Origin: Deltaproteobacteria bacterium
GTDB lineage: Bacteria; Desulfobacterota; Desulfobulbia; Desulfobulbales; Desulfocapsaceae
Direction of reading: 5' to 3'
Assembly: GCA_002747805.1 (NCBI GenBank)
Contig: PDQP01000050.1
Span: 1 to 52,221 of the forward strand
DNA: 52,221 bases
Part shown: positions 3,985 to 40,548 of the stretch, piece by piece
Layout of the letters: every line of letters begins with the position of its first letter
Position numbering within the stretch: position 1 is the first letter of the stretch
Made by a program: the position numbers and the translations under genes
The notes under the pieces: model-generated
The model's input: only the letters and a program-made list of their open reading frames with translations
The model's database searches: none
What the model was told of the DNA's origin: nothing

Positions 3985-5709
3985 TCAGATACCGGCTTTA
4001 AGATTTTCGGGAAATCTGCCGGAAACCGCAAAGTCATTAACCACATTTTGATGAATTTGCAGGGCCGCATCCACTATTTGCCTGAGGTGAGAGGTTGCAT
4101 CGGCGGATAAATCCTGAAAGCTGCCGCCATAGCCGACGAAGTTAGCCGAATCATTATTCATAACCCATTGGATTTTAATCAATACTTCGGTAAGCATTTT
4201 CAGATCATAGCCATTTTCATCCACAGAAGCTATATTCAGCCGATCACCAGGCTCAATCTGAATATCTTCATGTTCATTTTTCATAATCACAAAGCCAAGC
4301 CCGGATTCCGACAGGTTCACCACTCCAGCCGGCATGGAAACTCCCATACCGGACACGCTAAGAACCAGTCTGGGCCCGGTCTTCATGGTAAAGTAAATCC
4401 GCTGATGCCGCCTCTTTTGAATAAATTCCGAGGCAACCCTTCTCACCTTGCCGCCATCGGACAAGACCGTGCAATCAAGCCCAAGATGGCTGCTGACGGT
4501 CTGCACAATCTCGGTCGGCGAGGCCTCGGTATCAGCAAGGCCGTCCTGTTCCACCTTTTCAATATCATCACTTACCATACAGGTTGAAGGCTGCTTGATG
4601 ATAATCCTGCCGGACTTGCCCTTGAAATATCTCAGTGCCTCAAGGGAACATGCAGCACCGGACAGCATGGTCAGGGCAAACTTGCCGGTAAAAATATCGG
4701 CAACCGAACAAATAAGGGCATCTATACCGGATTCATCCGCCGCCGAAGGCATCCCCGAATTAATCAGGAAGAAATTACCCTCATTTTCCGCCAGCTGATC
4801 AACCATGCCGGGCGTACCAATATAGCTGTAACCAGCGAGCAGAGGAACTTCGGAAGAAGCAGGCAGCACCGGAATACGGCAAATCTGGTTGATATAAACC
4901 ACCAAGGGCAAAACAAGGGCCTCCGGCATCTCCTGAACCACCAGCACCGTGCCGTCAAAGCCGCCCGGAAATCTGGTAAAAACATTAAACAGCTCGGCAA
5001 TACCGCCGGCACCGGACAAGACCAGCAATAACTGACCACAGGGGATATTGTGTCCAGCCGGTTTCACTTGAGTTGCCATACTGTATGACGGGGCGTTTAA
5101 TCTGGTAAATTCGCCAATCCTCGCCCTGGCTGCCTTATGTATGGTCTTGATAAACCTGTGCTGAACCTCGTCTTCCTTATGCTCACGGGTGGGTTTGACC
5201 AGAAAATCCACCGCACCAAAGCGGAGAAAATCGATAATGGTATTTTGGGAACGGTTACTAAGGTTGCTGACAATAATCACCGGACATGGATGACTGAGCA
5301 TCAGATGCTTTAATACCGAGGTGCCGCCCATGCCGGGCATATTGACATCAAGAGTGATAACATCCGGTTTTACCTCCCTCGTCTTCTGCAGGGCCTCATC
5401 GCCGTCAGCCGCCTCGCCAACCACCTCCAGGGTGCCGTCCGACTCAATCATCTTCTTGATAATACGCCTGAAAAGTTTTGAGTCATCGACTATCAAAACC
5501 CGTTTTCTGCGGTCTGGATCATCCTCACATCCGGCCTCCAGCAGCCGGTTCTTGATGGCGACATCCGAGCTGATAATATCATCCGGCTTTTCCTTGGAAA
5601 TGGTGATCATAAAACCGCATTCCCGGCAGTTAAAGCTCTGAAACTTATCTTTTATATTGACCAGATCCACATCGTAGCGGGAACCGCAGTCTTCACAAAA
5701 AACAATCAT
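3985..5709 (-). CDS. Four-domain signalling protein: zinc ribbon, REC, degenerate CheB-like methylesterase domain and PilZ
   Basis: N-terminal CxxC...CxxC ribbon (MIVFCEDCGSRYDV...FNCRECGF). REC domain (RVLIVDDSKLFRR...PDVITLDVNMPGMGG...VKP). CheB-like domain in which LSGAGG, QEMP and SGAACS replace GASTGG, QHMP and GMGNDG. C-terminal PilZ with intact RRHQR and NLSESG motifs. Confidence 0.8.
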   Translation of the reverse strand: MIVFCEDCGSRYDVDLVNIKDKFQSFNCRECGFMITISKEKPDDIISSDVAIKNRLLEAGCEDDPDRRKRVLIVDDSKLFRRIIKKMIESDGTLEVVGEAADGDEALQKTREVKPDVITLDVNMPGMGGTSVLKHLMLSHPCPVIIVSNLSNRSQNTIIDFLRFGAVDFLVKPTREHKEDEVQHRFIKTIHKAARARIGEFTRLNAPSYSMATQVKPAGHNIPCGQLLLVLSGAGGIAELFNVFTRFPGGFDGTVLVVQEMPEALVLPLVVYINQICRIPVLPASSEVPLLAGYSYIGTPGMVDQLAENEGNFFLINSGMPSAADESGIDALICSVADIFTGKFALTMLSGAACSLEALRYFKGKSGRIIIKQPSTCMVSDDIEKVEQDGLADTEASPTEIVQTVSSHLGLDCTVLSDGGKVRRVASEFIQKRRHQRIYFTMKTGPRLVLSVSGMGVSMPAGVVNLSESGLGFVIMKNEHEDIQIEPGDRLNIASVDENGYDLKMLTEVLIKIQWVMNNDSANFVGYGGSFQDLSADATSHLRQIVDAALQIHQNVVNDFAVSGRFPENLKAGI

Positions 5710-5783: not shown

Positions 5784-6203
5784 TTATTTGTCCTGGGCAG
5801 AATATCTTACCTGCTTGAGATATGATTTCAGGGCCTTGTAATCATCTTCAAAAATATCCAGAAATTTGGCTCCTATTTTCATCCGCCCTTCACTTTCACT
5901 AACCCAGGCGACCTCAACGATTGCCGTCAGGGGTGCGGCGACACGTTGATCATCAACCAGCATGGATACCCCCTTGCGGTGATGCTGCCAGCCGGAAATA
6001 TCCACAGAAATACAGAGATGATCACCTTTTTTATAGTCGCCCGCCAGACAAAAGCAGATGCCGTCCTCACTCAGGTTCTCCAAGGCGGCCTTCTCGCCGG
6101 GCCCGGCGGCCATCGGATAGGCAAGACGCTTAACCGAGAGTTCTCCGCCCTTTTTTATCCTTACCTTTTCCCGCAGTTTTCTGTCCTCTGCCTTGTCTGA
6201 CAT
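5784..6203 (-). CDS. Stand-alone PilZ-domain protein
   Basis: 139 aa with the RxxxR motif (REKVR) and the D/NxSxxG motif (NLSEDG) at PilZ-typical spacing. Confidence 0.7.
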   Translation of the reverse strand: MSDKAEDRKLREKVRIKKGGELSVKRLAYPMAAGPGEKAALENLSEDGICFCLAGDYKKGDHLCISVDISGWQHHRKGVSMLVDDQRVAAPLTAIVEVAWVSESEGRMKIGAKFLDIFEDDYKALKSYLKQVRYSAQDK

Positions 6204-6220
6204 AAATAATTTACCGATTT

Positions 6221-7252
6221 TTATTTCAGGATGGTATCAATACCCTTAATCCCCGTCAAGGATGCCTTTTTAGCAAAGCTGTCATCAACCAGCCCCTCTA
6301 CCCTTTCATCATCAACCAGACCAAATTGTTTCATCACCTTTGCCATATACTGAAATTCCTCATCCAGCGGCACATACTTGTCAAAAACAATCCGGTTTTC
6401 ATTGGGGCTGGTCAGGGCATATTCAACCAGATCCGCCGGTTGATTCCAATAGGAAGCGGCTATTGCCGCCGCCTCCGGCAGATTCTTTTTTGCCCACATG
6501 CCCGAACGCACCGCCCCTGCAACCAGCTTTTCCACCTGCTCCGGGTGCTGCTCGATAAAGTCTTGCCTGACCAGCATCAGATTGCAGATAAAGCCGGGCC
6601 ACACATCCTCGGCATAGGTAAACACAGTGGAATCGCCGTTTTGCAAGGTCTTGGCCGCAAAAGGCTCGCCGACATAATAGGCATCAAGCGCCCCGGATGA
6701 CAAGGCGGCCGGCATATCGGGCGGATTCATCTCCACCACCTTCAATCTGCCGCCGAGACCGTATTTCTCGGCCAGCAGTCTAACGCTCAAATTATGGCCG
6801 GAATACCGCATCGGCACCGCCACCGTCAGCCCGGCCAAATCTTCCATTTTCTCGGCCTTTAGCTCCTTGCGGACAACAAAGGTGCTTTCATGCCGATTGC
6901 CGATATAGACCACCTTGACATCCTCACCCTGCTGCCGCAGCACAATAGCCAAGGGGGCAATGATAAAGGCCGCCTCAATATTGCCGTTGCGCAGGGCCTC
7001 GCCCATCTCGGCAAAGGAAGCAAATTTAACCGCAGAAAAACGAAGGCCCTCCCCTTCCCTGGATGCATAATCCAAAAGCGGGGCGGCCAGATTGGTGATA
7101 ACCGGCATATAGCCCATATGCACTACCTCACGGCCGCCGGAATCGAAATTGACCCGGTAGTGCAGAAAACTGATAAAAACAAACCAGCCCGCCAGAATAA
7201 CCCCAACCAGTACACTTCTCGGCACACGTGCCAGATAATTATTAAACGGCAT
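6221..7252 (-). CDS. ABC transporter substrate-binding protein, NitT/TauT (NMT1-like) family, membrane-anchored
   Basis: The body matches the SsuA/NrtA/NMT1-like fold (GYMPVITNLAAPL..., AAFIIAPLAIVL). Start trimmed to M34 (MPFNNYLARVPRSVLVGVILAGWFVFISF, a TM anchor). The longer track ORF would run through the upstream ATPase gene. Confidence 0.75.
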   Translation of the reverse strand: MPFNNYLARVPRSVLVGVILAGWFVFISFLHYRVNFDSGGREVVHMGYMPVITNLAAPLLDYASREGEGLRFSAVKFASFAEMGEALRNGNIEAAFIIAPLAIVLRQQGEDVKVVYIGNRHESTFVVRKELKAEKMEDLAGLTVAVPMRYSGHNLSVRLLAEKYGLGGRLKVVEMNPPDMPAALSSGALDAYYVGEPFAAKTLQNGDSTVFTYAEDVWPGFICNLMLVRQDFIEQHPEQVEKLVAGAVRSGMWAKKNLPEAAAIAASYWNQPADLVEYALTSPNENRIVFDKYVPLDEEFQYMAKVMKQFGLVDDERVEGLVDDSFAKKASLTGIKGIDTILK

Positions 7253-8033
7253 CGGGAACCCCCAGCATAAAAAACACCTCTTTCCGCAGTTTAAGCAGCT
7301 CCGGCTCCTCGGTAATATGCCGCGGATGAGGATGCACCAGTTTATGGTCAAGCTGCACCGCCGCCGGTCTGCCGCTTAAAATCACAATGCGGTCTCCCAT
7401 CACCAGGGCATCATCAATATCATGGGTTACAAAAATAACGCTTTTACCAGTGTATAAGTGCATCATCACCACTTCTTCCCGCATCCTCATATGGGTCAGG
7501 AAGTCAAGGCCGGTAAAAGGCTCGTCCATAAACAGGGTGCGGGGATCAACCGCCAGGGCTCTGGCCAGCTCCACCCGCCGCTGCATCCCGCCGGAAAGCT
7601 CGTATGGATAACGCTGACCGGCTCCAGTCAGCTCCACCATATCGATATATTCCTGAATCTTGTTATTTCTTTCCTCTTCGTCCTTGATATTCCTAAGTCC
7701 CAGGCCGACATTTTGCTGAACCGTCATCCAGGGCAGCAAGGCACTATGCTGATAGACAAAGATATGATCGGAACTGGGGCCTCTCATGGGTTTTCCGTCC
7801 ACCAGCACCTCTCCGGCCGTAGCCTGCTCAAAACCGGCAATAATCCTGAGCAGGGTCGATTTGCCGCAGCCGGACGGGCCGAGGATGCAGACCATCTCCC
7901 CTTCTTCAAACTCAAGATTGATGTCTTCCAGAATCCGCAGCCTCTTGCCGGGACTGCTGCTTTCAAGTTCTCTCGATTTGCGTCTTTTTTCAGTGTACTC
8001 CTTGCACAAACCGGAAATAACAATATGACTCAT
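7242..8033 (-). CDS. ABC transporter ATP-binding protein (NitT/TauT family)
   Basis: Walker A GPSGCGKST, signature LSGGMQRR, Walker B LFMDEPF and H-loop VTHD. Confidence 0.9.
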   Translation of the reverse strand: MSHIVISGLCKEYTEKRRKSRELESSSPGKRLRILEDINLEFEEGEMVCILGPSGCGKSTLLRIIAGFEQATAGEVLVDGKPMRGPSSDHIFVYQHSALLPWMTVQQNVGLGLRNIKDEEERNNKIQEYIDMVELTGAGQRYPYELSGGMQRRVELARALAVDPRTLFMDEPFTGLDFLTHMRMREEVVMMHLYTGKSVIFVTHDIDDALVMGDRIVILSGRPAAVQLDHKLVHPHPRHITEEPELLKLRKEVFFMLGVPDAV

Positions 8034-8119
8034 GGCAATAATCTCCGTCCGGCAATTACGGCAGCACCCAAAAGTACACCAAGACCAACTTTTTTCAAGC
8101 TACTAAACATATTATTCAT
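8030..8119 (-). CDS. Possible 29-aa hydrophobic micro-protein between the permease and ATPase genes
   Basis: ATG...TGA ORF encoding MNNMFSSLKKVGLGVLLGAAVIAGRRLLP. Its TGA overlaps the ATPase ATG (ATGA), consistent with translational coupling. It has one predicted TM span. No convincing SD sequence was seen. Confidence 0.25.
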   Translation of the reverse strand: MNNMFSSLKKVGLGVLLGAAVIAGRRLLP

Positions 8120-8170
8120 AAATAAAAATATCAACTTAAATCCCAAATCCCCAATCCCCAAAGGACCACC

Positions 8171-8947
8171 CTAACGGGACAGATTCGCCCAGGAAACCGA
8201 ATCACTTTTTCCCAGCCATTTCATTACCATATCAAGGCCGAGACCAGTCAGGCCAATCACCACCATACCGGCCATCACATAATCCATCCTCAAGGCATTA
8301 CGTGAATCCAGAATCAGGTAGCCAAGGCCGGAATCAACCGCAATCATCTCGGCCGCCACCACCACCAGCCAGGCAATGCCCAGGGTAATCCGCAGGGCAG
8401 TAAGCACCGAGGGCAGCATGGCCGGAACAATAATCCGGTTGACAATCTCCCAGGTGGTCAGCCCGAAATTGGCCGCAACCTGAAAGTAGGTCGGCTTGAT
8501 TGATTTAACCGCAAGGGTGGTAGAGACCACCAGCGGAAAAAAACTTGACAGGAAAATAAGAAAAACGGCAGGCATATCACCAATGCCGAACCAGAGCATC
8601 GCCAAAGGAATCCAGGCCAGGGGAGAAATGGGCCGCATAAACTGGATAATCGGGTTAAAGGCATCCATCAGGTTCTGACTGCGGCCAAAGAGCATCCCCA
8701 GGGGAACCGCAAACAGGATGGCAAGATAAAAACCGGCCGTTACCCTGAACAGACTGGCTATGGTATGCTTAATCATGGAGCCGTTTAAGGTTAGTTCCCA
8801 AATACTGGCAACCACTCTTAAAGGCCCGGGGAAGACCTGGCTGCTCCAGCCGCCGAAAGCACTAGCCAGAAACCAGACCAGGGTAACACCGCAAAAAGTA
8901 ACGAAAGGTAAAAAAAAACTTCTCGGCAATATTTTCATGGCAAACAA
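8171..8947 (-). CDS. ABC transporter permease (NitT/TauT family)
   Basis: 258 aa with about six hydrophobic spans and a BPD-transport core similar to TauC/SsuC (AAEMIAVDSGLGYLILDSRN). Confidence 0.85.
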   Translation of the reverse strand: MFAMKILPRSFFLPFVTFCGVTLVWFLASAFGGWSSQVFPGPLRVVASIWELTLNGSMIKHTIASLFRVTAGFYLAILFAVPLGMLFGRSQNLMDAFNPIIQFMRPISPLAWIPLAMLWFGIGDMPAVFLIFLSSFFPLVVSTTLAVKSIKPTYFQVAANFGLTTWEIVNRIIVPAMLPSVLTALRITLGIAWLVVVAAEMIAVDSGLGYLILDSRNALRMDYVMAGMVVIGLTGLGLDMVMKWLGKSDSVSWANLSR

Positions 8948-8982: not shown

Positions 8983-9942
8983 CTAATTACTGCCTGCAGG
9001 TAAAAGCCTGACAATCTCCTTAGCCAGCTCCACATGCTGCAAACCGGCCATACTTTTGCGGTCATAGGCGATAGCCGGCAGGGAAACAATCTGGGATTCC
9101 TTGATCTTGCTGTCATCGGCAATGATGGTGTCAAGCATCCTGTCGCCATATAGTTCCCGCAGCTTGGTATAAATGAGCTTGGATGCGACCTCTTCCTTTC
9201 TATACATGGTAATCAGCACCCGGAAAACCAGATCCGGATTGATCTTGCCGTGCATCAGGTTAATCAGCTTCTGAATCTTTTTCACCCCGTCAGCGGCCAG
9301 AAACTCACAAGGACAGGGGATAATCGCCATTCTGGAAGCGGTCAGGGCATTCAAGGTAAAAAATTCAATGGCCGGCGGCGTATCAATCAGGATATAATCA
9401 AACTCATCCTTCAATAAATTCAGCCTGTCCCGCAAGAGAAACTCAAAAAACCTTTTCCCGAAATGTCTCTTGTTCAAAAGGGACATATTCACATTTGACG
9501 GCAGGATAAATAAACCGGCATAACGGGTTGGAATGATATAATCGCCGAAACTATCCGCACCAGAATCAACCATTTCAAAAAAAGAATTACGGTTGCGGTA
9601 GCCAAGGGCAAGACTGAGGTTGGCCTGAGCATCAAAGTCAATCAGCAGCACCTTTTTCTTCAGCAAAACCAGGGATAAACCAAGATTAAGACAGGTGGTA
9701 GTCTTGGCCACCCCGCCCTTCTGATTGGTTACGGTAATCACCGTTTGCCTAGGCAACTGCTGCAGGGCAAGCTCCCGGTCAAAAAAATTCAGGCCGCCCT
9801 TTTCCTCACCCGCCTTAACCAGCTCAACCTTACCCTTGCACTGCTTGCAACGAAGCCGGTCAAGATTTTCCGGAACCTTGCCGCTCTTTAATTTGTGCCG
9901 CTTACCGCACCCTGTGCATACAATGAACATTTTTTTCCCCAT
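8983..9942 (-). CDS. ParA/MinD-family ATPase with an N-terminal four-Cys zinc ribbon
   Basis: CTGCGKRHKL...LRCKQCKGK ribbon followed by the deviant Walker A (TNQKGGVAKTTT) and LLIDFDAQANLS. The start may instead be the ATG at 9930 (MFIVC...), which has a GGGGA RBS. Confidence 0.8.
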   Translation of the reverse strand: MGKKMFIVCTGCGKRHKLKSGKVPENLDRLRCKQCKGKVELVKAGEEKGGLNFFDRELALQQLPRQTVITVTNQKGGVAKTTTCLNLGLSLVLLKKKVLLIDFDAQANLSLALGYRNRNSFFEMVDSGADSFGDYIIPTRYAGLFILPSNVNMSLLNKRHFGKRFFEFLLRDRLNLLKDEFDYILIDTPPAIEFFTLNALTASRMAIIPCPCEFLAADGVKKIQKLINLMHGKINPDLVFRVLITMYRKEEVASKLIYTKLRELYGDRMLDTIIADDSKIKESQIVSLPAIAYDRKSMAGLQHVELAKEIVRLLPAGSN

Positions 9943-9967
9943 CTAACTAAATTTTTCGTCAGCCAGC

Positions 9968-11068
9968 CTACGCCATGTGCAGATGTCCCCGAACGGTCTC
10001 CAATATAGCACCAGGTATGGCATGATCATTAACCACCCGATCCACCACCTGCTGCTGAATGGCATTTTCGGTAAGATTGGGAAAGACACAATAATGATTG
10101 TCATGGGCCATGGTAACACCGCCGTATTCACGGATATTAGCCAGCCCCATTGCCCCGTCATCGCCGATACCGCCAAGCAGCACCCCGGCAATAAACCCGT
10201 CAAAGGACTCGGCCGCTGAATTATAAAGCATGTCAATGGGCTTATCTACCGCTTCACCCACCATAACCGCATATTTTTCATCGCCGATATGATCAAGGAC
10301 CAGGGAATTTTCATTGGAACCTATATAGCAAACCCCCGGCTCAATAATGGTGTCTTCCTGCAGGGCCTTGATTCTCCAGGAGACAAACTTGTCAAACTCC
10401 TCGACAAAGGAAGGCAGAATCTTATTGGAAATTGACTGAATAACAATGATGCTGGTCTGCGGCATCCGCATCATATGGGCCATTGTCCGAATAACCGTAT
10501 TCGGCCCGCACAGGTTAGTCCCCATCAGCACCAAGGCCTCGGGAGCCGCCCCGCCGCCTGCCGCCCCCGCCTCATCCGCCGCAAAAATCGGCAGCTTGGC
10601 CCGGCGGATATTATCCACATTGACCGAGGCCGCCATCTTGACCCGTTCGATGATTCTCTCCCGCCCTTCATTCAAATCCCGGGAAACTGCACCGGAAGGC
10701 TTAGGCACAAAATCAACCACGCCAAGCCTCAAGGCCTCAAAGGTAACCGCCCCGTCAGTAAACAAGGAGCTTAATACCACAATGGGAATCTGACACTTGA
10801 TCATCACATGCCTGGTGGTGCTAATACCGTTCATCACCGGCATATCCATATCCAGGGTAATCACGTCCGGTTTTAGCTCTTTTGCCTTTTCCAAGCCGAG
10901 CAAGCCATTTTTCGCATCGCCGACCACCTCAATCATGGGGTCGGAATTCAATATATCGGATACGGCCCGGCGCATCACGCCTGCATCATCTACGACCAGA
11001 ACTCTAATTTTATCTTCCATGCTCAACCTGCTCAACCAAGTGGTTAGATTTTCAAGGTGATAAATCAC
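9968..11068 (-). CDS. REC plus degenerate CheB-like methylesterase-domain protein
   Basis: REC domain (IRVLVVDDAGVMRR...DVITLDMDMPVMNG...VPKP). CheB-like domain in which GTNLCG and IQSIS replace GASTGG and TQHMP, while GIGDDG is retained. GTG start at 11068, with an alternative ATG at 11020 (MEDKIRVLVVDD). Confidence 0.8.
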   Translation of the reverse strand: MIYHLENLTTWLSRLSMEDKIRVLVVDDAGVMRRAVSDILNSDPMIEVVGDAKNGLLGLEKAKELKPDVITLDMDMPVMNGISTTRHVMIKCQIPIVVLSSLFTDGAVTFEALRLGVVDFVPKPSGAVSRDLNEGRERIIERVKMAASVNVDNIRRAKLPIFAADEAGAAGGGAAPEALVLMGTNLCGPNTVIRTMAHMMRMPQTSIIVIQSISNKILPSFVEEFDKFVSWRIKALQEDTIIEPGVCYIGSNENSLVLDHIGDEKYAVMVGEAVDKPIDMLYNSAAESFDGFIAGVLLGGIGDDGAMGLANIREYGGVTMAHDNHYCVFPNLTENAIQQQVVDRVVNDHAIPGAILETVRGHLHMA

Positions 11069-11073: not shown

Positions 11074-12522
11074 CTAGGCCGGATCGCTCACCATTTTCGC
11101 CTCCGCCCGCTCAACAATAATCCTGACCAGTTCAGAACCAAGGCTGCTGTCGGGGGCAACCAAAGCATCCGGGCATTTTTCCAGGGCCGATTCCGCCATT
11201 TCCTTAACCAGACAGGTTTCCGGCTGCTGGATCAGGAGACCAGCTCGGCTATGCTGCAGTTCGTTCATGCCGTCAGTGCCGTCAGTAGAGGCCCCCGACA
11301 AAACTACGCCCATGCAGTCCGCCCCCATCACTTCCGCCATGGAAATCATCAGCATATCGCCTGCACCGCGGCGGTCAGGAAAGGATGAAGGAGTAAGATG
11401 AAGACTATAACCATCTCCGCCCTTCTCAATCTTGGCATACTCAAGACCGGAAACCAGATAACATACTCCCCCCTCCAGAGGCATGCCGTCCGTTGCCCTT
11501 TTAACCGGAATCTGGCTATGTGAACCGATATAGCTGACAAAGGCATCCACATGCTCAGGATCGGCATAAAGCACCACCATAAAGGCGGCCCCAAGACCAG
11601 CAGGTATCTGGGGGATAACCTTCAGCAAGGTACCGTATCCTCCCTCGGCGGCCACCATACAGACCGCAAAATCCATGGGCCTGCCGCCTTCATCACCCTG
11701 CTGATCCAGCTTTTCAGTCCGAATATAGCGTACAGAATTGATGGACACATCGGCCGCCAACTGCACCTTCTTACGGATGAGCTGTTTTTGTTTTTCCTTG
11801 TCCTCCCCGCTCAGGCTGGAAGGCTTGGGGATAAAGTCAACCGCCCCGTATTTCAGGGTATCAAAGGTAATGGTCGCCCCCTCATGGGTCATGGCACTGA
11901 CCATGACCGTGGGAATCGGAAAGCGGATCATAATCCTCTTCAAGGCGGCCACCCCATCCATCACCGGCATATTGATATCCATGGTGATCACATCGGGATG
12001 CACCTTGGGAATAAGCTCCAGGGCCTCCTCGCCATCGGCGGCGTTGCCGACTATAATAAACTCCTCCTCGCCGAAAATCGAGGCCAGGGCCTTGCGCATC
12101 ATGGACGAATCATCAACTACCAGCACCCTGATCCGCCGATCTCTTTCCTTAAGTCCGGTCTCCTGGGCAGCATCGCCTGATCCGGCGGCCGTCTCGCCCT
12201 CATCCTGTTTACGGCAGGCCTCCATGATCAGATGCTGCCAGTTCAGGGTGATGGTTTTTTTATCCGGTTTTTCCCCCATTCGGAATTCAAAACTGCCCTG
12301 ATTCCAGCCCATGATGGTATAAAAGGCATCCTCGCCGACCACATCGCCCACCTCGGCATGAACAATCTCGCCTTCAACCAGATAAACCTTGCCGTTCCTG
12401 CTGCCCTTGCTGACCACAATGGCCGCCGTGGTGCCGCCGATACAGCTCATCTGCAGTATATCGGGAAGCTGAACGCTTAAGGTGCCAATAAATCCGCTAT
12501 CTTTTCCTTCAGAGTTACTCAT
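11074..12522 (-). CDS. PATAN (DUF4388), REC and degenerate CheB-like domain protein
   Basis: N-terminus LSVQLPDILQMSCIGGTTAAIVV...GKVYLVEGEIVHAEVGDVVGEDAFYTIMGWNQGSFEF matches the DUF4388/PATAN pattern. It is followed by REC (IRVLVVDDSSMMRK...DVITMDINMPVMDG...IPKP). The CheB-like domain has AAEGGY and VLYAD in place of GASTGG and TQHMP. The start overlaps the cheA stop by 8 nt. Confidence 0.8.
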   Translation of the reverse strand: MSNSEGKDSGFIGTLSVQLPDILQMSCIGGTTAAIVVSKGSRNGKVYLVEGEIVHAEVGDVVGEDAFYTIMGWNQGSFEFRMGEKPDKKTITLNWQHLIMEACRKQDEGETAAGSGDAAQETGLKERDRRIRVLVVDDSSMMRKALASIFGEEEFIIVGNAADGEEALELIPKVHPDVITMDINMPVMDGVAALKRIMIRFPIPTVMVSAMTHEGATITFDTLKYGAVDFIPKPSSLSGEDKEKQKQLIRKKVQLAADVSINSVRYIRTEKLDQQGDEGGRPMDFAVCMVAAEGGYGTLLKVIPQIPAGLGAAFMVVLYADPEHVDAFVSYIGSHSQIPVKRATDGMPLEGGVCYLVSGLEYAKIEKGGDGYSLHLTPSSFPDRRGAGDMLMISMAEVMGADCMGVVLSGASTDGTDGMNELQHSRAGLLIQQPETCLVKEMAESALEKCPDALVAPDSSLGSELVRIIVERAEAKMVSDPA

Positions 12523-15500
12523 TTTCAGTCATCGGTAAAAGTTCGCCAATTTTCAGATTCTGTCTGCCAATGGTCAAATTGACCAGTTCGTGAATATCAA
12601 GGATCAGCGATATCCGGCCGTCTCCAAGGATGGTTGCACCGGAAAATCCTTTATTATCACGAAGATAATCGGGAAGCGGCTTAATAACCACCTCTTCCTG
12701 ACCACGCAGGTCATCAACCACCAGACCCACCCGGCCGCTGCCGGAACTGACAATCACCACAAAAGGTCTTTCATTTTCAGCCGCCCGGGCAGAAGAGGCA
12801 AGATTAAAGACACCGGACAGGCGGATCAGCGGAATGGCACTATCACGCAGGTAAATAACCTCATTGCCCTTGATACTGTTAATTTCCCCCTTACGCACCC
12901 GCAGGGTTTCATCAACGGCAATCAATGGAATGGTGAACAAGGCACCGCCCACATTAACCAGCAGGGCCTTAATTACGGCCAGAGTAAGCGGAATCTTGAT
13001 TCTGAAACGGGTGCCTTCGCCGGGGCTGGAATCAATCTCCAGGGTACCGTTAAGGTTTTCCAGATTTTTCCTGACCACATCCATACCCACCCCGCGGCCG
13101 GAAGTACGGGTAATCTTGGCAGCGGTGGAAAAGCCAGGCCGCATAATCAGCTCGATAATCTCCTTATAGCTCATCCGGGCAAGCTGGTCGGGTGTAACCA
13201 GATTCTTCTCAAGGGCAATGGCCTTAATCACCTCCGGCTCAAGCCCCTTACCGTCATCCTCCACCTCGATAACCACATGGCTGCCCTCATGGTAGGCATC
13301 AAGTTTCAAAAGCCCCCGTTCATTCTTGCCCAGTCTCTGACGTTCAGCCACCGTCTCGATACCATGATCCACCGCATTTCTGATCACATGGACAAGCGGA
13401 TCGGCAATTTCCTCAATAATCATCTTATCCAGTTCGGTATCTGCACCCATGATTTCAAGGCGTACATCCTTATCAGTGCCATGTACCAGATCCCTAATCA
13501 GCCTCGGATAGCGGTTAAAAAGCTGGGAGATGGGCAGCATCCGCACCTTCATCACACTTTCCTGCAAATCGTTTGCCACCCGGCCAAGGGCAACGATTGC
13601 CTCGTTGAGTTTGAAGGAAAAGCCCCTGACCTCCTTAAAATATTTTTTGTTGATGGACGGATTATGCTGGAGCTGGGCCTCAAGCCGTCTCATCTCATTA
13701 TACAGCTGGGAAAACCAGGCCCGGTTGATGACCAGCTCTCCGGCCTGGTTAAGCAGTTCGTCAATCTTGGCAGCATCAATACGCAGGCTCTGCCTTAAAA
13801 CCTTTTCGCGGTCGGAAATATCAGCAGCCTGTTTGCTGCCGGACTTACGCATCTCTTCACGGCGTTTTTCCACCCTTTTCTCAAGGTCGGTTTTGGCGGC
13901 GGCTGCACTTTTTTCATCCTCAGCGGCCCCGTCCTCGGCAGGCGGTTTGGGCTGCTTACTCTCTCCGGCATCAGCGGTCTTGACCTCAGTTTCGACAGGC
14001 GGTTTGACTTCCCTGTCAGCAGTCTTGCTCTTTGTCTCAGCAGGCGGCTTAACTTCCTGAACAGCGGCCTTGGCCTCGGCAGGCGGCTTAACTTCCGCCT
14101 CCTTCTGCTTGGTCTCATCAACCGCCGCAGCCAACACAGGCTCCTGAATAGCAGGTTCCTGAATAGCCGGTTCAGACGGCAGCTCAAGATCAAGCGGCTG
14201 CACTTCATCATCCGGCAAAGACGGCGTTTTGCCGCCAATGCCCAAGGCACTGTCAAGGGCCGAACTCAGGCGGTCAACCACCGCACCTTCATCCGCCGCC
14301 AGGCCGTCTGCCAAATCATCCGCCAGCGGATCATAAAAATCACCGCTGTCATCACCCAAGTCATCGTAGGACAAAAGCTCATCCATCCGATCCTTTAAGG
14401 TCTCCTCTCCTGCTCCGCCGTCAAGTTCAGGCTCACCCATCAGTTCAAGCTCACTCGGCAAGGCTGACGGCTTTTCAGCGGCCATAATTTCACTTTCATC
14501 CGCAGTCTCACCGCCCACAGTCTCTGCCGGTTCAACGCTGACCGCTTCCTCCGCCTCATCATCAGTTTTTTCGGCGAGAGGAGGAAAAATTTCAGTTATT
14601 TTAGAGAGATACTTCTTTACACATTCGCCCAGATGCTCAAAACAGTCATCTTTAAGACCATCCTTAACCCCGTCTTCAATATCCTTTAGCCATTCATCAT
14701 AGATATCCGTCAGCTTCTCATAGCCCATATAATTGGCAGCGGCCCTCATCCTGACCACCAATTCACGGATTTCGGCAACGCCTTCGGAAGGGTCTTCCGC
14801 CCCGTCAAACTTTACACCGACCGCCTCAATCTTGGCAAAATTCTCCCTGATCTGCTCAAGAAAAATTACAAATAACTCGGTATCATTCTGCTCATCATAA
14901 TCGCCATGATCCTGCTCAACAGCAACATCATCACTGACCGACAGGCGTTCTACACCCTCAAGTTTTTCAAAACTCTTCATAATGGCGTCAAAATAAATAT
15001 TGACCCCGTTTTCCAGAATCTCCTCAAGAGCAGGTGCCTCGTTTAGAAAAAACCGTTCCTGATAGCCCTCCAGCTTTCTTTGCCAGCCGTCATAAAAGGT
15101 TCCCAGTTTTTCATAGCCCATATAATTGGCCGAGGCCTGCAACTCATGGATTCTTTCATTGATCAGCTCAATCTGGGAGGAGCGGTTTTCAGAGGCCGGA
15201 ATCTGCAGGGCAATATCCCGAATTTCCAGCAGATTACTCTTTAGCTGCTCAATGAAAATGGTATATAACTCTTCGTCCTCCTCTTCCTGGGCATAGACCT
15301 CACCGATTTCCACCGTATCGCTTTCCCAGGACTCATCATGGTCAACCGGAGATATATCGCCAATCGGCGACAGTTCTTCATCCACCGGGGCCTCGTCCGT
15401 TCCATCCCAATCGGATTCGGCGGCAATACCGCCATGCTCGTCAAGGTCGAAAGATAATTCATCCTCATCATCCGGGGCCTGAGCCGCACCCGGGCTTATC

Positions 15501-16495
15501 TCATCCTGATCAAAGTTAAGCCCTTCGTCATCATCATCGGGAAACATCTCCTCAAGACCAAGGGTCAGTTCATCTCCGGCCGCATTCCGGCTGGCCCCTT
15601 CCGCCTCATATTCGACTTCTGCCTTGGCTGCAATATCATCATGTTCATCAAAAACCTGCTCGTCGGCAGCAGCCTCTTCATCGGGCAGCATCTCATCCAG
15701 CCCAAGGGTAAGCTCCTCCCCGGCATCGTCAGACAAAGCTGGTTCATCAACCTGATCATCGGCAGCCTCAGGTTTATCATCAAGAGCATCAGGTTCAGCA
15801 GCGGCTAACTGTTCATCAGGCTCATCCTGAACAACGGATTCCTCTTCAAGCTCGGCTGCCAGCCGCTTAACCGCCTCATCAGCGGTATCTTCATCGGCAA
15901 ACAGCTCATCCACACCCAGCTCCAGATCATCGGCCTCTGCTCCGGCTGCATCAACGCCGTCAGCCGCCGGAGCATCACTTAGGTCAACCACATCATCAAG
16001 GGTCAGATCGACCTGATCCACCTCATCATCGGCAAAGGCCTGTTCTTCAATCTCCGGCTTAGCCTCTTCGGCATCAGCCTTTTTATCCTGCTCAAAATAA
16101 CTGAGAATATCGGCCAGAATATCTTCGGTATCGGTTAATTCCTCGTGGTTTTTCGCCACATCATCAATCAGCAGGGCCATCCGGTCCTTGCCGCTGATCA
16201 GGGTATCAATCAGGGCCGAATTTACCTCCAGCTCCCCCTGCCGCACTGCTTCCAGCAGGTTTTCCAGCTTATGGGCAAGCTCGCTGGTTACTTTCAGGCC
16301 CAAGTAGGCCGAGGAACCCTTAATGGTATGGGCATCTCTAAAGATGTCATCAATTATTTCCCTGTTTTCCGGCTCTTCCTCAAGTCTGATCAGGTTCGCT
16401 TCCATTTCGTCCAGGTGTTCACCAGCTTCGGCGATAAACTCTGGAAGCAGTTCCATATCAATCATTTTAAGCTCCTCGCTAAAAGGGAAATCCAT
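12515..16495 (-). CDS. cheA: Chemotaxis histidine kinase CheA, 1326 aa, with extra HPt-like modules and long acidic/proline-rich linkers
   Basis: P1 HPt (FRDAHTIKGSSAYLG), a dimerisation region, an HATPase domain (N box IRNAVDHG, G1 DDGKG, G2 GRGVGMD) and a C-terminal CheW-like P5 domain. About 800 aa of additional sequence lie between P1 and P3. Confidence 0.9.
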   Translation of the reverse strand: MDFPFSEELKMIDMELLPEFIAEAGEHLDEMEANLIRLEEEPENREIIDDIFRDAHTIKGSSAYLGLKVTSELAHKLENLLEAVRQGELEVNSALIDTLISGKDRMALLIDDVAKNHEELTDTEDILADILSYFEQDKKADAEEAKPEIEEQAFADDEVDQVDLTLDDVVDLSDAPAADGVDAAGAEADDLELGVDELFADEDTADEAVKRLAAELEEESVVQDEPDEQLAAAEPDALDDKPEAADDQVDEPALSDDAGEELTLGLDEMLPDEEAAADEQVFDEHDDIAAKAEVEYEAEGASRNAAGDELTLGLEEMFPDDDDEGLNFDQDEISPGAAQAPDDEDELSFDLDEHGGIAAESDWDGTDEAPVDEELSPIGDISPVDHDESWESDTVEIGEVYAQEEEDEELYTIFIEQLKSNLLEIRDIALQIPASENRSSQIELINERIHELQASANYMGYEKLGTFYDGWQRKLEGYQERFFLNEAPALEEILENGVNIYFDAIMKSFEKLEGVERLSVSDDVAVEQDHGDYDEQNDTELFVIFLEQIRENFAKIEAVGVKFDGAEDPSEGVAEIRELVVRMRAAANYMGYEKLTDIYDEWLKDIEDGVKDGLKDDCFEHLGECVKKYLSKITEIFPPLAEKTDDEAEEAVSVEPAETVGGETADESEIMAAEKPSALPSELELMGEPELDGGAGEETLKDRMDELLSYDDLGDDSGDFYDPLADDLADGLAADEGAVVDRLSSALDSALGIGGKTPSLPDDEVQPLDLELPSEPAIQEPAIQEPVLAAAVDETKQKEAEVKPPAEAKAAVQEVKPPAETKSKTADREVKPPVETEVKTADAGESKQPKPPAEDGAAEDEKSAAAAKTDLEKRVEKRREEMRKSGSKQAADISDREKVLRQSLRIDAAKIDELLNQAGELVINRAWFSQLYNEMRRLEAQLQHNPSINKKYFKEVRGFSFKLNEAIVALGRVANDLQESVMKVRMLPISQLFNRYPRLIRDLVHGTDKDVRLEIMGADTELDKMIIEEIADPLVHVIRNAVDHGIETVAERQRLGKNERGLLKLDAYHEGSHVVIEVEDDGKGLEPEVIKAIALEKNLVTPDQLARMSYKEIIELIMRPGFSTAAKITRTSGRGVGMDVVRKNLENLNGTLEIDSSPGEGTRFRIKIPLTLAVIKALLVNVGGALFTIPLIAVDETLRVRKGEINSIKGNEVIYLRDSAIPLIRLSGVFNLASSARAAENERPFVVIVSSGSGRVGLVVDDLRGQEEVVIKPLPDYLRDNKGFSGATILGDGRISLILDIHELVNLTIGRQNLKIGELLPMTENE

Positions 16496-16528: not shown

Positions 16529-17182
16529 TCAATCCTGCAAGTCTCCCGGCCAAGTCTTATCTCCAGCCATGGCCTTATTGTCCACAATCAGAATATCATA
16601 CAGCTTGAAATTCGTCATAAAATATTCAATGGTCTCCAGCTCTTCCCGCACCGCCATAATATCTTCTTCCTGCGGGGCCGAATCCTCCTCACCCTGCTTA
16701 GTCTCCCGGCCATCGGTAAGCTGTTCAAGCACCGGCCCTGCCCGCTGGATGGTCTTCCAGACCAGCAGTACCACCTCCTGAAAGTTAGTGGAAAGGTCGT
16801 TAAGGGATTTGCCGATCCCGTCCATCTCGGGACAGGCATATTCCGGCACCGACAATTCCAGATCGCCGTCTGCTATCCGGCAGGCAAATTTCGACATTTC
16901 ACCCGCAGGACGCAGGATAAAACGGTATAACATAATCAGGGCGGCAACGCCTCCGGCCAAAATCAGGGCCAAACAAATCAGGATAGAAGCCCGCATCCCC
17001 AGAAGCAGGGAGGAGGCCGCCGCATCGCCGCCGCGGGAAACAGCCGAGACCAGGCTGGCAGCAAAATCAGCACTGCCGAGGCGAAGGGTCAGCCAGCCGG
17101 CGGCCAACAGGGGGACAATCAAGGTCAGGATGAAAAGTACCCAGATAAAAACATGCGTTTTCCGTAATTGAAGCCTTGCCAT
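16529..17182 (-). CDS. Two-TM HAMP-domain protein without a recognisable output domain
   Basis: Start trimmed to MARLQLRK... at 17182 (GGAG RBS), because the longer track ORF overlaps cheY. Two hydrophobic spans are followed by a HAMP signature (FILRPAGEMSKFACRIADGDLELSVPEY) and an acidic tail of about 90 aa. Confidence 0.65.
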   Translation of the reverse strand: MARLQLRKTHVFIWVLFILTLIVPLLAAGWLTLRLGSADFAASLVSAVSRGGDAAASSLLLGMRASILICLALILAGGVAALIMLYRFILRPAGEMSKFACRIADGDLELSVPEYACPEMDGIGKSLNDLSTNFQEVVLLVWKTIQRAGPVLEQLTDGRETKQGEEDSAPQEEDIMAVREELETIEYFMTNFKLYDILIVDNKAMAGDKTWPGDLQD

Positions 17183-17243
17183 TTCACTCCTGCCCTGAAA
17201 GACCGCACCGTTAATTGAACGTAAATAAAATAAACCCGAAAAC

Positions 17244-17588
17244 CTAAATAAGTTCCAGCAGCTGATCAAGATTATGCTTGTTGACAAAACCCAAGGCACC
17301 GACCTCAGCCGCCCGGCCGCTGTACTGCTCCTTATCCAGATTTGAAAAGAAGACAATCCTGGCCCCGGAATCAAGGGTCATAATTTCCCTTGCCGCCGAA
17401 AATCCATCCATATCACGCATGGTTACATCCATAATAACCAGTTCCGGCCGATGCTGGTCATACATATCGATAGCCTCGCGGCCGTTTCTTGCCTCGGCGG
17501 CAATCTGGTATCCCTTCTTTTCCAGCAGATTACGAACCATTTTACGCATGATTGATGAATCATCAACTATCATTATCTGTTTGCTCAT
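17244..17588 (-). CDS. cheY: Single-domain response regulator CheY
   Basis: 114 aa with IMIVDDSSIMRK, the phospho-acceptor context LVIMDVTM and a conserved K in FVNKH. Confidence 0.9.
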   Translation of the reverse strand: MSKQIMIVDDSSIMRKMVRNLLEKKGYQIAAEARNGREAIDMYDQHRPELVIMDVTMRDMDGFSAAREIMTLDSGARIVFFSNLDKEQYSGRAAEVGALGFVNKHNLDQLLELI

Positions 17589-17634: not shown

Positions 17635-18138
17635 CTACTCAGCCATTGCCTTCAGGTGCTTAATCTCGTCTGTGTGCAGAATACGGCCAAAGTTAAGCAG
17701 AATCAAAAGACGCTCATCAATCTCACACACTCCGTCTATATATTGACTTTCAAGACCGGCGGTAACAATTTCCGGCGGCGGTTCAATGGTTTTGGTAAGA
17801 ATTTTCAAGACCTTGGTTACTGAATCAACCCGAAAGCCGGTAATCCGGCCTTCAATTTCAAGGATCAGGATCCAGACCTTCTCCTCATCCTCTTCCGCCT
17901 TTTTCTGCAGCAGGTTCAGCCTCTTACGCAGATCGATAACCGGAATAATATTACCGCGCAGGTTAATCACCCCTTCCACAAAGGCAGGAGAATTGGGAAT
18001 GGAGGTAATGGCCGCATCACGGATAATTTCCCTGACCTTTAGAATTTCCACTCCGAACAGTTCCGTTCCGATGGAAAAACCAACCAGCTGCATGGAATCT
18101 TCAATGACAGTTTTCTGACCTGTACTCGTAACGTCCAT
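17635..18138 (-). CDS. cheW: Chemotaxis coupling protein CheW
   Basis: 167 aa with QLVGFSIGTELFGVEILKVREI...VINLRGNIIPVIDLRKRL, typical of the CheW fold. Confidence 0.9.
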   Translation of the reverse strand: MDVTSTGQKTVIEDSMQLVGFSIGTELFGVEILKVREIIRDAAITSIPNSPAFVEGVINLRGNIIPVIDLRKRLNLLQKKAEEDEEKVWILILEIEGRITGFRVDSVTKVLKILTKTIEPPPEIVTAGLESQYIDGVCEIDERLLILLNFGRILHTDEIKHLKAMAE

Positions 18139-18237: not shown

Positions 18238-20826
18238 CTAGGCACCGGCCTCGATCTTAAACTTACGAACCTCATCGGCAAGTTCAGTCGAGAGCTTTCT
18301 CATGTTCTCGGAAATGTTAATAACCTCACCGGCTCCGTTATAGGTGTTTTCCGCCTGAGCTGCACCTTCCTCGGTGGCGGCCACAACCCGCTTGGAACGT
18401 CCGGCCTGAGCGGCAGTCAGCTGGTCAATAGATTCTGAACGGGAAACAACCTCACGCATATCACCATCAGCTTCCTGGGCCAGGCGGTTAGAGTTTTCCA
18501 CCAGTTTATCGATGTTTTCAACCTGCTGAACCAGACGGCCAAGGGCCTCTTCCGCAGCAGCCCGTCTGGCACCCTGCTGACCGGCCATATTCATAATCTC
18601 GGATGAAAAGGCGTTTACTTCGGCCATAATGTTCTGCACTGACTTGGAACTTTCAGACAGGGAGTCTGCAACTCTGGTAATATCTTCAATAGCCTGAATG
18701 TTACCCTGACCACCCTGGGAGATTTTCTCCAGAGCAAGCTGGGACTGATTAGACAGCTTGGTACCGTCCTCAACCCTCTTGGTTGAGTCCTTAATCAGCT
18801 TGGTAATCTCGTTGGCCGCATCCGCAGAACGCTGGGCCAGCTTACCAACCTCGTCTGCAACCACAGCAAAACCCTTACCGTGTTCACCGGCACGGGCGGC
18901 CTCAATGGCGGCGTTCAGGGCCAGCAGGTTGGTCTGTTCGGTAATTTCGGTAATAACCGAGATGATCTCTGAAATCTGTTCGGATGATTCGGCAATGGCC
19001 TGCATACCTTGCACGGTGGCGTTTACCGTATCACGACCCTCTTGTGCGGCCTGCAGCACTTCCTGACCCTGCTCGCGGGAGCTTTTGGCTGCCTCGGCCA
19101 GCAGATTAACCGCTTCCCGCATGGCATCCACAGCGGCGGTGGCTTCCTGCACCGATTCTCCCTGCTTGGTTGCGGTAGCCACAACCTTACCACCAGTCTC
19201 ACCCATATCGGAAACCCTGGCGATAACCGTGTTAGCTTCCTCTTTCTGCGAACCTGTAGCATCCGCCACCTGCTCCATGGAGCTAACCAGTTCCTGAAGT
19301 CTGGCACCGGAGTCGGTAGCTTCCTGCTTCTGGGCGGCGGCGTTGCTGGCAACCTCACCGGCAGTCTTACCCATTTCGGAAATCAGACCCTGCATTTCCT
19401 GCATCATGGCAAGGTTCTTCTCGGCACGATCTCGGTTGGCCTGGGCACGCTGGGCCACGTTACCGGCACTGCTTTCAACCGCAATTGATGAACTATTAAC
19501 CAGGGTAAAGGAACGCCTTAGCTCCTGAATCAGCTCGTTAACGGCGGCGGCCATATCACCGACCTCGTCCTTACTTTCAACCGCCACGTTCTGGGTAAAG
19601 TCACGATTAGCAGCAACCCTTTGCACCGTACGGGCAATCCTTACAATCGGGTTAGCAACGGTACGGGCAGTAAACAGCCAAATAAAAATTGCCGCCACCA
19701 GAATAACCAGGGTAATAACCAGCACCGTGGTCATAGCCTGATTCTGAAACTCAGCAATACGGATGGAGGAGGCCAGAATATCTTCCTCGTAGGCACCAGC
19801 CGAAATAACCAGGTGCCAGGGAGCAAAATAGGCAAAGTGTACGGTTTTCTTTTTGGCTACCGGGTCGCCCGGGTTTTGCCACATATAGGTTTGAGAACCA
19901 AACTCGCCCTCTCTTAGTGACTTGGCCGCCTCAATCCTTTCCTTAACGATCAGGGTTCCAGTCTCAACGTCCTTGATGTTAGAAATATCCTCACCATCAC
20001 GCTTACCATTTCTTGAAACAAGATAAACACCCTTTTCATCAAGAACGGTAATATAACCAGATTTACCAATGGTAACATCATATAATGACTGCCGGATGTC
20101 CTTATCAATCTCGATCAGTTCACCGACATAGATGGCACCGATAACCTGACGATTGCTATCAAAAATAGGAGCATATACGTTTTGGTATAATCGGCCAACC
20201 ACCTCACTCATACCCCGGAAGGTATCTCCTCTTAATACCGTGGAAATTACCGGATTTTCCTTACCATCCGGCTTGGTGCGGGGGATATAGGTGCCGACCG
20301 CCCGGCTACCGTCCGCCTTACGGATAGTGGTGGCCACCCGCAGCATATCACCGGCATCATTCATCCTTTGAAAGATGGTAACATCAATCCCGCTGTTAAT
20401 CCTTTTAACCTCATCAACAATATTCAGGCCGGATTCACCGCCCGCCTGAGTCTGACCAAACCAGAGGGAAGGCAGGCTGACCGGTACCGTGGAACCGGTA
20501 AACTGGTTAACCGCATTCCAGCGGACATTTTCGCCAGTCAGATCCAGGCTAACACTGCCCTCACGGCCAATAAAGTCCTTGGCATGTTCCATTGCTGTAT
20601 TAAGTTCTCTGACAACAACATCATACTCAAACTTGATGGTCTCATAGGAAGTCTTAACAATCCGGTCAACTGAACGGTATGCAATTTTGGACGTGTCATC
20701 ACGAGCATGCTCCTGCACCTGCAAACCGGAGAAATAGTTAACAACTGAAACAACGATCAAGGGGACAATGGTAAGAAGAATACCGATTGTCAGCAATTTT
20801 GGTACCAGCCTAAGATTCTTTAGCAT
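18238..20826 (-). CDS. Methyl-accepting chemotaxis protein with a large Cache-type periplasmic sensor and HAMP
   Basis: 862 aa. TM1 is followed by a periplasmic region of about 340 aa with Cache-like motifs, then TM2, HAMP and the signalling hairpin tip [34 protein letters not shown]. Confidence 0.9.
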
Positions 20827-21247
20827 GAGCGACCTTCCTTTTTTTGAATTACAAAAAAATGTTTCATAAATGCCAAAATGAAGAGCGGCCCGAAGCCGGA
20901 GGACTTAAGCACCAGCAGCACGGGACAGAACACTCTCCATCAAAACCTGCGGTCAGGCAAGGGCCGACCAACATTTCCCAGCCATTTTCCAACCAACAGA
21001 AGCGGATTATACGGAAAAAAAAATTATATGCAACAGAAAATATCAAGCCGCCGCCCTTGATCCCGATTTTACTGCCCGGTTAAATTCCTCATTGATTTTT
21101 AATAACCTGGTATTATTGTCAGATGATGGCCGGGGCTTTTCTGCAAGGAGCTGCCCTGGCCGCCGATGGAATTGAAAACAAAGCATTTTTCAGTCTGCGG
21201 CAGAATCTGAAATTCGAATATAAAATTCAAATGGCAGGAGACATGAT

Positions 21248-40034: not shown

Positions 40035-40548
40035 TCCTAAGATTTGAGCAAAACCCCAAAAAAATATTTTTTGGTTTTATCCATACTTGTCTAGATGCCC
40101 GTAGTTGCGTTCGTAGTTGCGATAATTGCCTTTATATTTTAAGTATTATCAAGATAAATACAGTAAATTTTATTAAATTTTATTTTTTTTAAGTTTAATT
40201 AAATGATTAAACTGTGAAAAAACAGCCGGGCGGCCAGCCTATTATCCCATTATACCGAATAAATTGACAAGGTTTATCAAGACCACATCAAGACAAGGAT
40301 TTACAAGGCGGTAAGAGAGAAAAACCAAGAAATAACAAGCAATTATCATTGTGGAAATATTGGAAAGGCCGTTTATAGAAAGTTTCTGCAAACGGACTTT
40401 GACCAAAGATGGAAATTGGATTTTATCAGCGTGCGTGCTGGGGGGTGCGTTTCGGCCCCGGCGGCCTACTTTTCAAGTGAATCACTTATGATGATGAAAA
40501 AAATAAAAAATAAAAAATAAAATTCCAACTCCATATTAGGAAGCTTTG
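40035..40548. other. Candidate replication origin (oriC) upstream of dnaA
   Basis: 514-bp non-coding region containing a strongly AT-rich block of about 85 bp (40131-40215). It has one near-consensus DnaA box, TTATCCATA, at 40077-40085. A repeated 9-mer, TTATCAAGA, occurs at 40146-40154 and 40274-40282. A direct repeat, GTAGTTGCG, occurs at 40101-40109 and 40113-40121. Confidence 0.45.

Follow-up and report, generated by a model that had tools for sequence, protein, structure and literature searches.

A PATAN-receiver-CheB-like response regulator without the CheB catalytic serine and histidine, encoded in a chemosensory module that lacks CheR

Domain organisation and loss of the CheB catalytic residues

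The window analysed here is a stretch of 52,221 nucleotides from a Desulfobulbales-like bacterium (GenBank assembly GCA_002747805.1, contig PDQP01000050.1, positions 1 to 52,221; family Desulfocapsaceae in the GTDB lineage), and our subject is a response regulator gene at 11074-12522 on the (-) strand, directly after cheA in a chemosensory gene cluster. From an ATG start, its open reading frame encodes 482 amino acids (aa), in which three Pfam domains were recovered, each well above its cut-off. These are an N-terminal PATAN domain of the compact, ~92-aa form (DUF4388, PF14332; aa 17-108, 12199-12474, E 3.4e-20, 72.7 bits against a cut-off of 25), a receiver (REC) domain with phospho-acceptor Asp182 (aa 130-236, 11815-12135; Response_reg at aa 133-236, E 2.2e-23) and a CheB-like domain with Ala292, Tyr319 and Asp414 at the catalytic positions (aa 285-463, 11134-11670; CheB_methylest at aa 287-463, E 1.2e-31). 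The fusion of PATAN, REC and a degenerate CheB domain described in a first-pass annotation of this DNA is therefore real. The DUF4388 match on which that annotation depended is significant and the peptide it quoted, VYLVEGEIVHAEVGDVVGEDAFYTIMGWNQGSFEF, lies in the translated reading frame, whilst its PATAN boundaries (~12238-12489) were displaced by a few codons. Throughout, CheB* denotes a CheB-like domain without the full catalytic triad, and labels from L010 to L144 denote the contigs and metagenome loci compared with the window.

REC follows PATAN directly and keeps all of its phosphorylation residues (DD137/138, D182, S209 and K233). As a CheB-like domain of ~180 aa comes after REC, the protein is a three-domain regulator, and so not of the two-domain PatA type in which PATAN is the only output. 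An AlphaFold2 (AF2) model was obtained for the whole protein (predicted local distance difference test, pLDDT, 87.4; predicted template modelling score, pTM, 0.73). The PATAN domain is predicted with confidence to form a small alpha/beta fold (pLDDT 83.6), for which a fold search returned no PDB match at E<=0.001 and no functional lead. Orthologues were 48-65% identical to the 482-aa protein, that of Desulfobulbus rhabdoformis being 61% identical.

The catalytic triad of CheB consists of Ser164, His190 and Asp286 (PMC3180692). HMMER alignment of the regulator to the CheB structures 1A2O (E 2.5e-38) and 6YMZ (E 7.5e-41) placed Ala292 at the position of the nucleophile Ser164 (VAAEGG versus GASTGG) and Tyr319 at that of His190 (VVLYADP), with Asp286 kept as Asp414, and the loss of both Ser and His is common to all 14 orthologues. 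CheB and the regulator otherwise have in common the REC and CheB folds, with 28-29% identity, the phospho-acceptor residues and an adjacent cheA, whereas PATAN is an N-terminal addition and the NCBIfam CheB model NF001965 scores the regulator at 228.6 bits, below its cut-off of 293. Foldseek superposed the model on the isolated CheB catalytic domains 1CHD and 3SFT (template modelling, TM, scores of 0.87-0.91) and on full-length CheB (6YMZ and 1A2O, TM 0.74-0.79 over ~350 columns, E ~1e-29), and because the model fits both, the CheB fold and the closed packing of REC on the catalytic domain are predicted to be retained.

Among the 14 orthologues, mean pairwise identity was 81% for REC, 67% for PATAN, 66% for CheB*, 55% for the linker between REC and CheB* and 21% for that between PATAN and REC. 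Since CheB* is about as well conserved as PATAN and far better than the PATAN-REC linker, the dead CheB domain is, by its sequence conservation, under constraint and maintained by selection. Residues invariant in the CheB* domains of the orthologues comprise E293-G-G, Y319, a PSSFPxRRG loop, an LSGxxxDG loop and QxPxxC, and they fall in what we take to be the loops lining the CheB active site, which suggests that the former active-site cleft still binds something. A replacement catalytic centre of Glu293, Tyr319 and Cys437 was considered and set aside: the Cys also occurs in canonical CheB, and the Glu and Tyr vary in the wider PATAN-bearing family.

Distribution of PATAN-bearing CheB-like proteins

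Searching 1.84 billion cluster representatives with a profile built from the 14 orthologues returned 5965 proteins at E<=1e-30, of which the best 150 representatives, each standing for a cluster at 50% identity, were used to count architectures. PATAN was joined to REC-CheB-like domains in 85 of these 150, showing that the architecture is widespread rather than unusual. Within the 85, PATAN was N-terminal as in our regulator in 36 (PATAN-REC-CheB*, ~470-520 aa), internal in ~45 (REC-PATAN-REC-CheB*, ~590-700 aa) and C-terminal in four; one protein carried four PATAN repeats, and another, of 1809 aa, was a fusion of CheA with PATAN-REC-CheB*. The Ser-His-Asp triad was kept in none of the 85 representatives with PATAN, compared with 17 of 66 proteins without it, whilst the REC residues DDDSK were present in 66 of the 85 PATAN-bearing relatives. 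In the top 120 homologues the three catalytic positions read AYD (54), SYD (25), AHD (24), GYD (12) or SHD (2), and those with triad loss include plain REC-CheB-like proteins of ~345 aa from Desulfonema. A profile of PATAN alone, run against an index of 5.8 billion proteins, found only 19 short stand-alone DUF4388 proteins and gave no architecture count.

Homologues that carry a specific source name are usually called 'CheB', and automated annotation ('chemotaxis protein CheB') would make the regulator an active methylesterase/deamidase. In keeping with those names, the CheB fold and the Asp are retained, and a few members of the broad family, namely the two SHD proteins of the top 120 and the 17 of 66 without PATAN, still have Ser-His-Asp. 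Our regulator, however, has Ala for the nucleophile Ser and Tyr for the general base His, a loss found in every orthologue; it scores below the NCBIfam CheB cut-off, and no CheR was seen in the window or in the module loci described below that could supply methyl esters. We therefore regard catalytic activity as extremely improbable, and the annotation of PATAN-REC-CheB* proteins as methylesterases should be corrected.

CheB and the PatA-type regulators are each known, and what appears to be new is their combination, the obligatory catalytic death of the CheB domain and a CheR-less module with several pseudo-CheBs. Literature searches on fusions of PATAN with CheB, on CheB-like proteins without the triad and on chemotaxis in cable bacteria found nothing relevant in a corpus that omits most subscription journals, in agreement with the first-pass annotation, which knew of no described PATAN-REC protein with a degenerate CheB domain. 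The family thus offers an always-dead yet conserved and phosphorylatable CheB fused to PATAN, which pipelines routinely mislabel as 'CheB'. Its members are frequent among sulfate reducers, and cable bacteria (Ca. Electronema) possess the same module.

A chemosensory module without CheR

The regulator gene is part of a module encoded on the (-) strand, in which the gene order is methyl-accepting chemotaxis protein (MCP), CheW, CheY, HAMP protein, CheA, the PATAN-REC-CheB* regulator, REC-CheB*, zinc-ribbon (Zn-ribbon) ParA-like ATPase, ABC permease, ATPase and binding protein, PilZ, and a Zn-ribbon-REC-CheB*-PilZ protein. The start of the regulator gene was confirmed to overlap the cheA stop, by 8 nucleotides (ATGAGTAA, 12515-12522), and the two genes also overlap or abut in L081, L084 and L087. 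Directly beyond the regulator gene lies the second REC-CheB-like gene (9968-11068, Pfam), whose triad positions read Asn-Ser-Asp and whose likely start, placed as in L088, is 11020 (350 aa). The third is at 3985-5709 and encodes 574 aa with an N-terminal CxxC...CxxC zinc ribbon, REC, a CheB-like domain (Gly-Glu-Ser) and a C-terminal PilZ domain (Pfam; orthologue in L082). The three CheB-like paralogues of the window are 28-30% identical to one another, and all fall under the NCBIfam CheB cut-off.

A scan with REC-based peptide patterns mostly gave ordinary CheB loci, with ~20 relevant ones, and missed the closest relatives; gene neighbourhoods were therefore taken from contigs encoding homologues. 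The module recurs in D. rhabdoformis (L081), in the closest relative, L087 (65% identical orthologue), on the metagenome contigs L082 and L084, in the divergent L086 and in several metagenome-assembled genomes (MAGs) of Desulfobacterales, with a reduced version in Ca. Electronema (L083), and is thus conserved in Desulfobulbales and Desulfobacterales. Neither the 52-kb window nor any related module locus yielded a CheR. Across 89 loci and the window, the 55 loci with an intact CheB included 34 that have a CheR-like reading frame, compared with 5 of the 34 in which every CheB-like gene is degenerate (odds ratio 9.4, p 2e-5). A module without CheR that encodes three dead CheB-like proteins changes what the regulator most likely is. 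The che clusters of Geobacter, all of which contain CheR, are of a different kind (PMC2577667).

The kinase gene itself (cheA, 12515-16495, (-); Pfam) encodes 1326 aa with an HPt domain, long acidic linkers, two divergent HPt-like repeats, dimerisation and HATPase domains and a CheW domain, and no REC. One HPt domain is detected by Pfam (aa 15-108). The region at ~aa 130-900 is an acidic, low-complexity linker of ~750 aa holding two mutually similar repeats with an ANYMGYEKL motif (~aa 405-500 and 540-640; 38% identity to each other, E 1e-19). Their match to the first HPt is weak (E ~5e-4 with composition statistics off) and they are invisible to Pfam even at E 10; both look like diverged HPt domains, with the His retained in one (H450) and replaced by Val581 in the other. 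The three HPt-like modules first attributed to this kinase thus come to one firm HPt and two weak ones, of which one is without its His. A C-terminal REC on the kinase is a defining feature of the type IV pilus (Tfp) class of chemosensory system, as in ChpA and PixL, and with a single Pfam-level HPt and no such REC the hallmark of that class earlier seen in this CheA is weak. At L089 (1328-6757), the kinase and the regulator are a single polypeptide of 1809 aa, with two Hpt domains, dimerisation, HATPase and CheW domains, a linker of ~170 aa, then PATAN, REC and a CheB-like domain. This CheA-PATAN-REC-CheB* fusion occurs on one contig only, where a Zn-ribbon ParA gene follows it. If the fusion is real, PATAN-REC-CheB* can work tethered to the kinase, and hence at the array.

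Upstream of cheA, the MCP (18238-20826, (-)) has a Cache_3-Cache_2 sensor, a HAMP and a signalling domain by Pfam and, by sequence, no C-terminal pentapeptide; it is followed by cheW (17635-18138, (-); Pfam E 4.9e-36) and by a cheY of 114 aa (17244-17588, (-)), a single REC (Pfam E 3e-26) whose position is kept in related loci. Between cheY and cheA lies a gene for a HAMP-only membrane protein (Pfam HAMP) with two transmembrane segments (16529-17374, (-)), which is kept at this place in L081-L085 and L087; because the listed reading frame overlaps cheY by 131 nucleotides, the start is probably at 17182 (217 aa).

The presence of several REC-CheB* proteins beside one CheY raises the possibility that they serve as a phosphate sink or kinase competitor, draining CheA~P and thereby shaping the CheY~P signal, with the additional domains tuning localisation only. 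Other multi-CheY systems include response regulators that act as phosphate sinks, REC is conserved better than any other domain of our regulator, and the module has 3-5 REC-CheB* proteins per CheA with its single CheY. A sink would nevertheless need REC alone, leaving unexplained the conserved dead CheB domain, PATAN and the distinct decorations of the paralogues (PATAN, PilZ and Zn ribbon), and we consider this role decidedly unlikely.

Downstream of the second REC-CheB* gene, a Zn ribbon and a ParA/MinD-like ATPase domain are combined in one protein (8983-9942, (-); Pfam AAA_31, CbiA and Zn_ribbon_4), and no other gene adjoins CheB* genes as constantly across the module loci as the one for this ATPase. 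A role for the regulator as an adaptor for the ATPase, positioning or partitioning the array together with its paralogues in the manner of ParP-ParC and PpfA and with phosphorylation as an added control, would agree with that constancy, with the L089 cluster, which is reduced to the CheA-PATAN-REC-CheB* fusion and the Zn-ribbon ParA, and with the recurrence of Zn ribbons on ParA, on the REC-CheB*-PilZ protein and on some REC-CheB* homologues. In the ParC/ParP and PpfA systems, too, a ParA-like ATPase is encoded inside a che cluster; the present ATPase differs in carrying a Zn ribbon at its N-terminus, the cluster yielded no recognisable ParP-like protein, and the ATPase is connected to CheB* by gene order only. 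As neither PATAN nor CheB folds have a known link to ParA-type ATPases, and the relatives of this PATAN subtype adjoin MglB and MglA rather than ParA (see below), we think this role quite unlikely, although it is compatible with the array adaptor that we propose below and does not exclude it.

The remainder of the module consists of a NitT/TauT-type ABC transporter (6221-8947, (-); Pfam and NCBIfam) and PilZ proteins. The transporter comprises a permease (8171-8947), an ATPase (7242-8033) and an SsuA/NMT1-like binding protein (6221-7351, likely start 7252), and is kept within the chemosensory cluster in D. rhabdoformis, several MAGs and Desulfobacterales loci, where it might serve as a co-sensor or be a regulated target; a second binding-protein gene lies directly upstream of the MCP gene in L084 and L086. 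A stand-alone PilZ protein (5784-6203, (-); Pfam) has RxxxR and NxSxxG motifs by sequence, and the two PilZ domains of the module both carry RxxxR and [DN]xSxxG, the intact motifs for binding cyclic di-GMP (c-di-GMP).

Links to pilus and polarity systems and a proposed adaptor role

PATAN binds PilB1 and PilC in Synechocystis, and MglA/MglB genes are often found near PATAN genes (bioRxiv 10.1101/2021.06.11.447907), so that the published connection to which the first-pass annotation appealed in proposing a type IV pilus (T4P) output does exist. Cyanobacterial PatA-type regulators (PixG, PixE, PilG and LsiR of the Tax/Pix systems, and Anabaena PatA) resemble our regulator in having an N-terminal PATAN followed by a phosphorylatable REC and in being encoded in a chemotaxis-like operon without CheR, and in these proteins PATAN is the output domain, which binds PilB1 and PilC. 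They differ in that our regulator has a third domain, the dead CheB, a compact PATAN of ~92 aa, a kinase without REC, no pilus genes nearby and a Desulfobulbales-like rather than a cyanobacterial host.

The nearest relatives of the PATAN domain itself point to polarity genes. A metagenome scan with PATAN alone gave 80 loci, of which 33 were at least 6 kb long; apart from that of the orthologue contig, the closest PATANs, at 43-50% identity, were those of REC-PATAN proteins of ~230-290 aa. REC-PATAN genes are followed directly by genes for a Roadblock (MglB-like) and an MglA-like protein in 44 of all 80 loci and, among the 33 longer ones, in 24, and PilY1 and PilM homologues were present in 18 and 14 of the REC-PATAN loci, respectively. 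At L109 (4712-16257), the order is PilY1, TPR, REC-PATAN, MglB, MglA, a 392-aa protein with a weak CheW-like domain, a PAS histidine kinase, a sigma54 response regulator and PilM. The PATAN of this REC-PATAN protein (9623-10321) is 45% identical to ours over 104 aa (E 3e-29) and of the same subtype, whilst the protein differs in its domain order and in having no CheB-like domain, and pilY1...mglB-mglA...pilM clusters of this kind are absent from the window. An order of the L109 type, with an Mgl polarity module and its PATAN regulator inside a T4P cluster, was seen in ~40 similar metagenome loci (L093-L144).

Proteins of 590-680 aa also contain the same REC-PATAN unit, here joined to REC-CheB*. 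Because the N-terminal half of REC-PATAN-REC-CheB* matches the unit colinearly (38% identity over 207 aa, E 3e-52), these proteins look like fusions of a unit linked to Mgl and T4P with one linked to the Che array. In Ca. Electronema sp. PJ (L083, 2144-4402), two adjacent genes encode proteins with cyclic nucleotide monophosphate (cNMP)-binding and PATAN domains, ~6 kb upstream of a REC-(weak PATAN)-REC-CheB* gene and the che cluster. In four distant loci (L010, L012, L013 and L017), PATAN-REC-CheB* is encoded no more than 6 kb from an MglA-like gene, and in L010 and L013 that gene adjoins one for Roadblock. In L013 (1722-14415, an uncultured Desulfobacterales MAG), genes for Roadblock, an MglA-like GTPase, a 532-aa protein without a Pfam match and a TPR-MshEN-T2SSE ATPase are divergent from those for HDOD, two REC-CheB*, PATAN-REC-CheB*, CheY and CheA.

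One reading of the T4P proposal of the first-pass annotation is a freely diffusing PatA-type regulator that binds PilB or PilC to steer T4P, its CheB-like domain being vestigial. The strong PATAN match to Pfam and the TPR-MshEN-T2SSE ATPase beside the PATAN-REC-CheB* gene of L013, the single distant locus with this arrangement, both speak for it. A vestige is not what the CheB* data indicate, however, since the domain is constrained to a degree similar to PATAN and is kept in all 85 PATAN-bearing clusters; moreover, the version fused to CheA cannot leave the array, no T4P gene lies near our gene or those of its close relatives, and CheA lacks the C-terminal REC that is a defining feature of the Tfp class (ChpA and PixL). 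We judge this account unlikely. A pilus output as such is partly supported, in that the nearest PATAN relatives lie in T4P/Mgl clusters, with no T4P gene near the regulator gene itself.

We tentatively favour, as a possibility somewhat short of even, a role for the regulator as a phosphorylation-gated, non-catalytic adaptor of the chemosensory array, linking the array to a polarity or pilus partner. CheA~P would phosphorylate Asp182 and, by analogy with CheB, phosphorylation would loosen the interface between REC and CheB* and expose the conserved cleft of the former active site. This cleft could then dock without hydrolysis, most likely on the receptor adaptation region or another array component. 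PATAN would be the partner-binding output. Given that the REC-PATAN proteins closest to it are encoded beside MglB/MglA in T4P clusters, the likeliest candidates are a polarity module of the MglA/MglB type or the pilus motor, PilB/PilC, which cyanobacterial PATAN binds. The regulator might in this way let the kinase activity of a polar array govern polarity or pili locally. The Frz system of Myxococcus xanthus, in which FrzE signals to FrzZ and FrzX acting on MglA/MglB/RomR, is the working analogy for such an adaptor: there, regulators of a Che-type kinase act on the polarity GTPase module that sets the direction of movement driven by pili and gliding. The Frz output regulators differ in having neither PATAN nor a CheB-like domain, and Frz possesses an active CheR (FrzF) and CheB (FrzG).

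Several observations weigh against the adaptor proposal. The 52-kb window contains no T4P, mglA or mglB gene; nor does the DNA up to 10 kb from the gene in the close relatives L081, L082, L084 and L087, and L083, L085 and L086 likewise have no T4P or Mgl gene over that distance. Within the window, jackhmmer seeded with E. coli HofB, a PilB homologue, detected no T2SSE ATPase, and searches seeded with proteins of related loci detected no MglA-like, Roadblock, PilM or PilY1 protein. The conserved neighbours in the close relatives are instead the ParA-like ATPase, the ABC transporter and the PilZ proteins, and in L087, the closest relative, the genes for flagellin and FlgK (20212-21461) lie ~9 kb downstream of the module, making a flagellar output possible for the module's CheY. 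The former active-site residues are also highly variable across the wider PATAN-bearing family, and cleft binding may be limited to the 'AEGG' subfamily. Finally, the REC-PATAN/MglBA/T4P loci probably come from few lineages, and counting them overstates the number of independent observations.

Should the dead domain prove to be a receptor-binding module gated by phosphorylation, this would point to adaptation, or to output coupling, that needs no methylation, and would offer a testable link between a Che array and the MglA/MglB polarity switch in bacteria other than Myxococcus. A broader conjecture, which we consider improbable as a whole, is that the module represents a methylation-free chemosensory class. 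Several dead CheB 'readers', gated by phosphorylation, would bind the receptor adaptation region and supply feedback or adaptation with no covalent change, whilst PATAN, PilZ and the Zn ribbon would wire the array to MglA/MglB and T4P, to c-di-GMP and to the ParA-like ATPase, respectively, with PATAN-REC-CheB* as the bridge between the Che array and the polarity GTPase.

Scans of the DNA for promoters and terminators performed no better than on shuffled sequence. The cumulative GC skew has its minimum near 20 kb (~20000-21300), where the che operon and nifU-nifS diverge, and may reflect gene orientation rather than a replication origin; dnaA is at 40546-41862 (+). Near the contig end, a gene at 50868-51998 (+) encodes a protein with DUF4172 and Fic/DOC domains.

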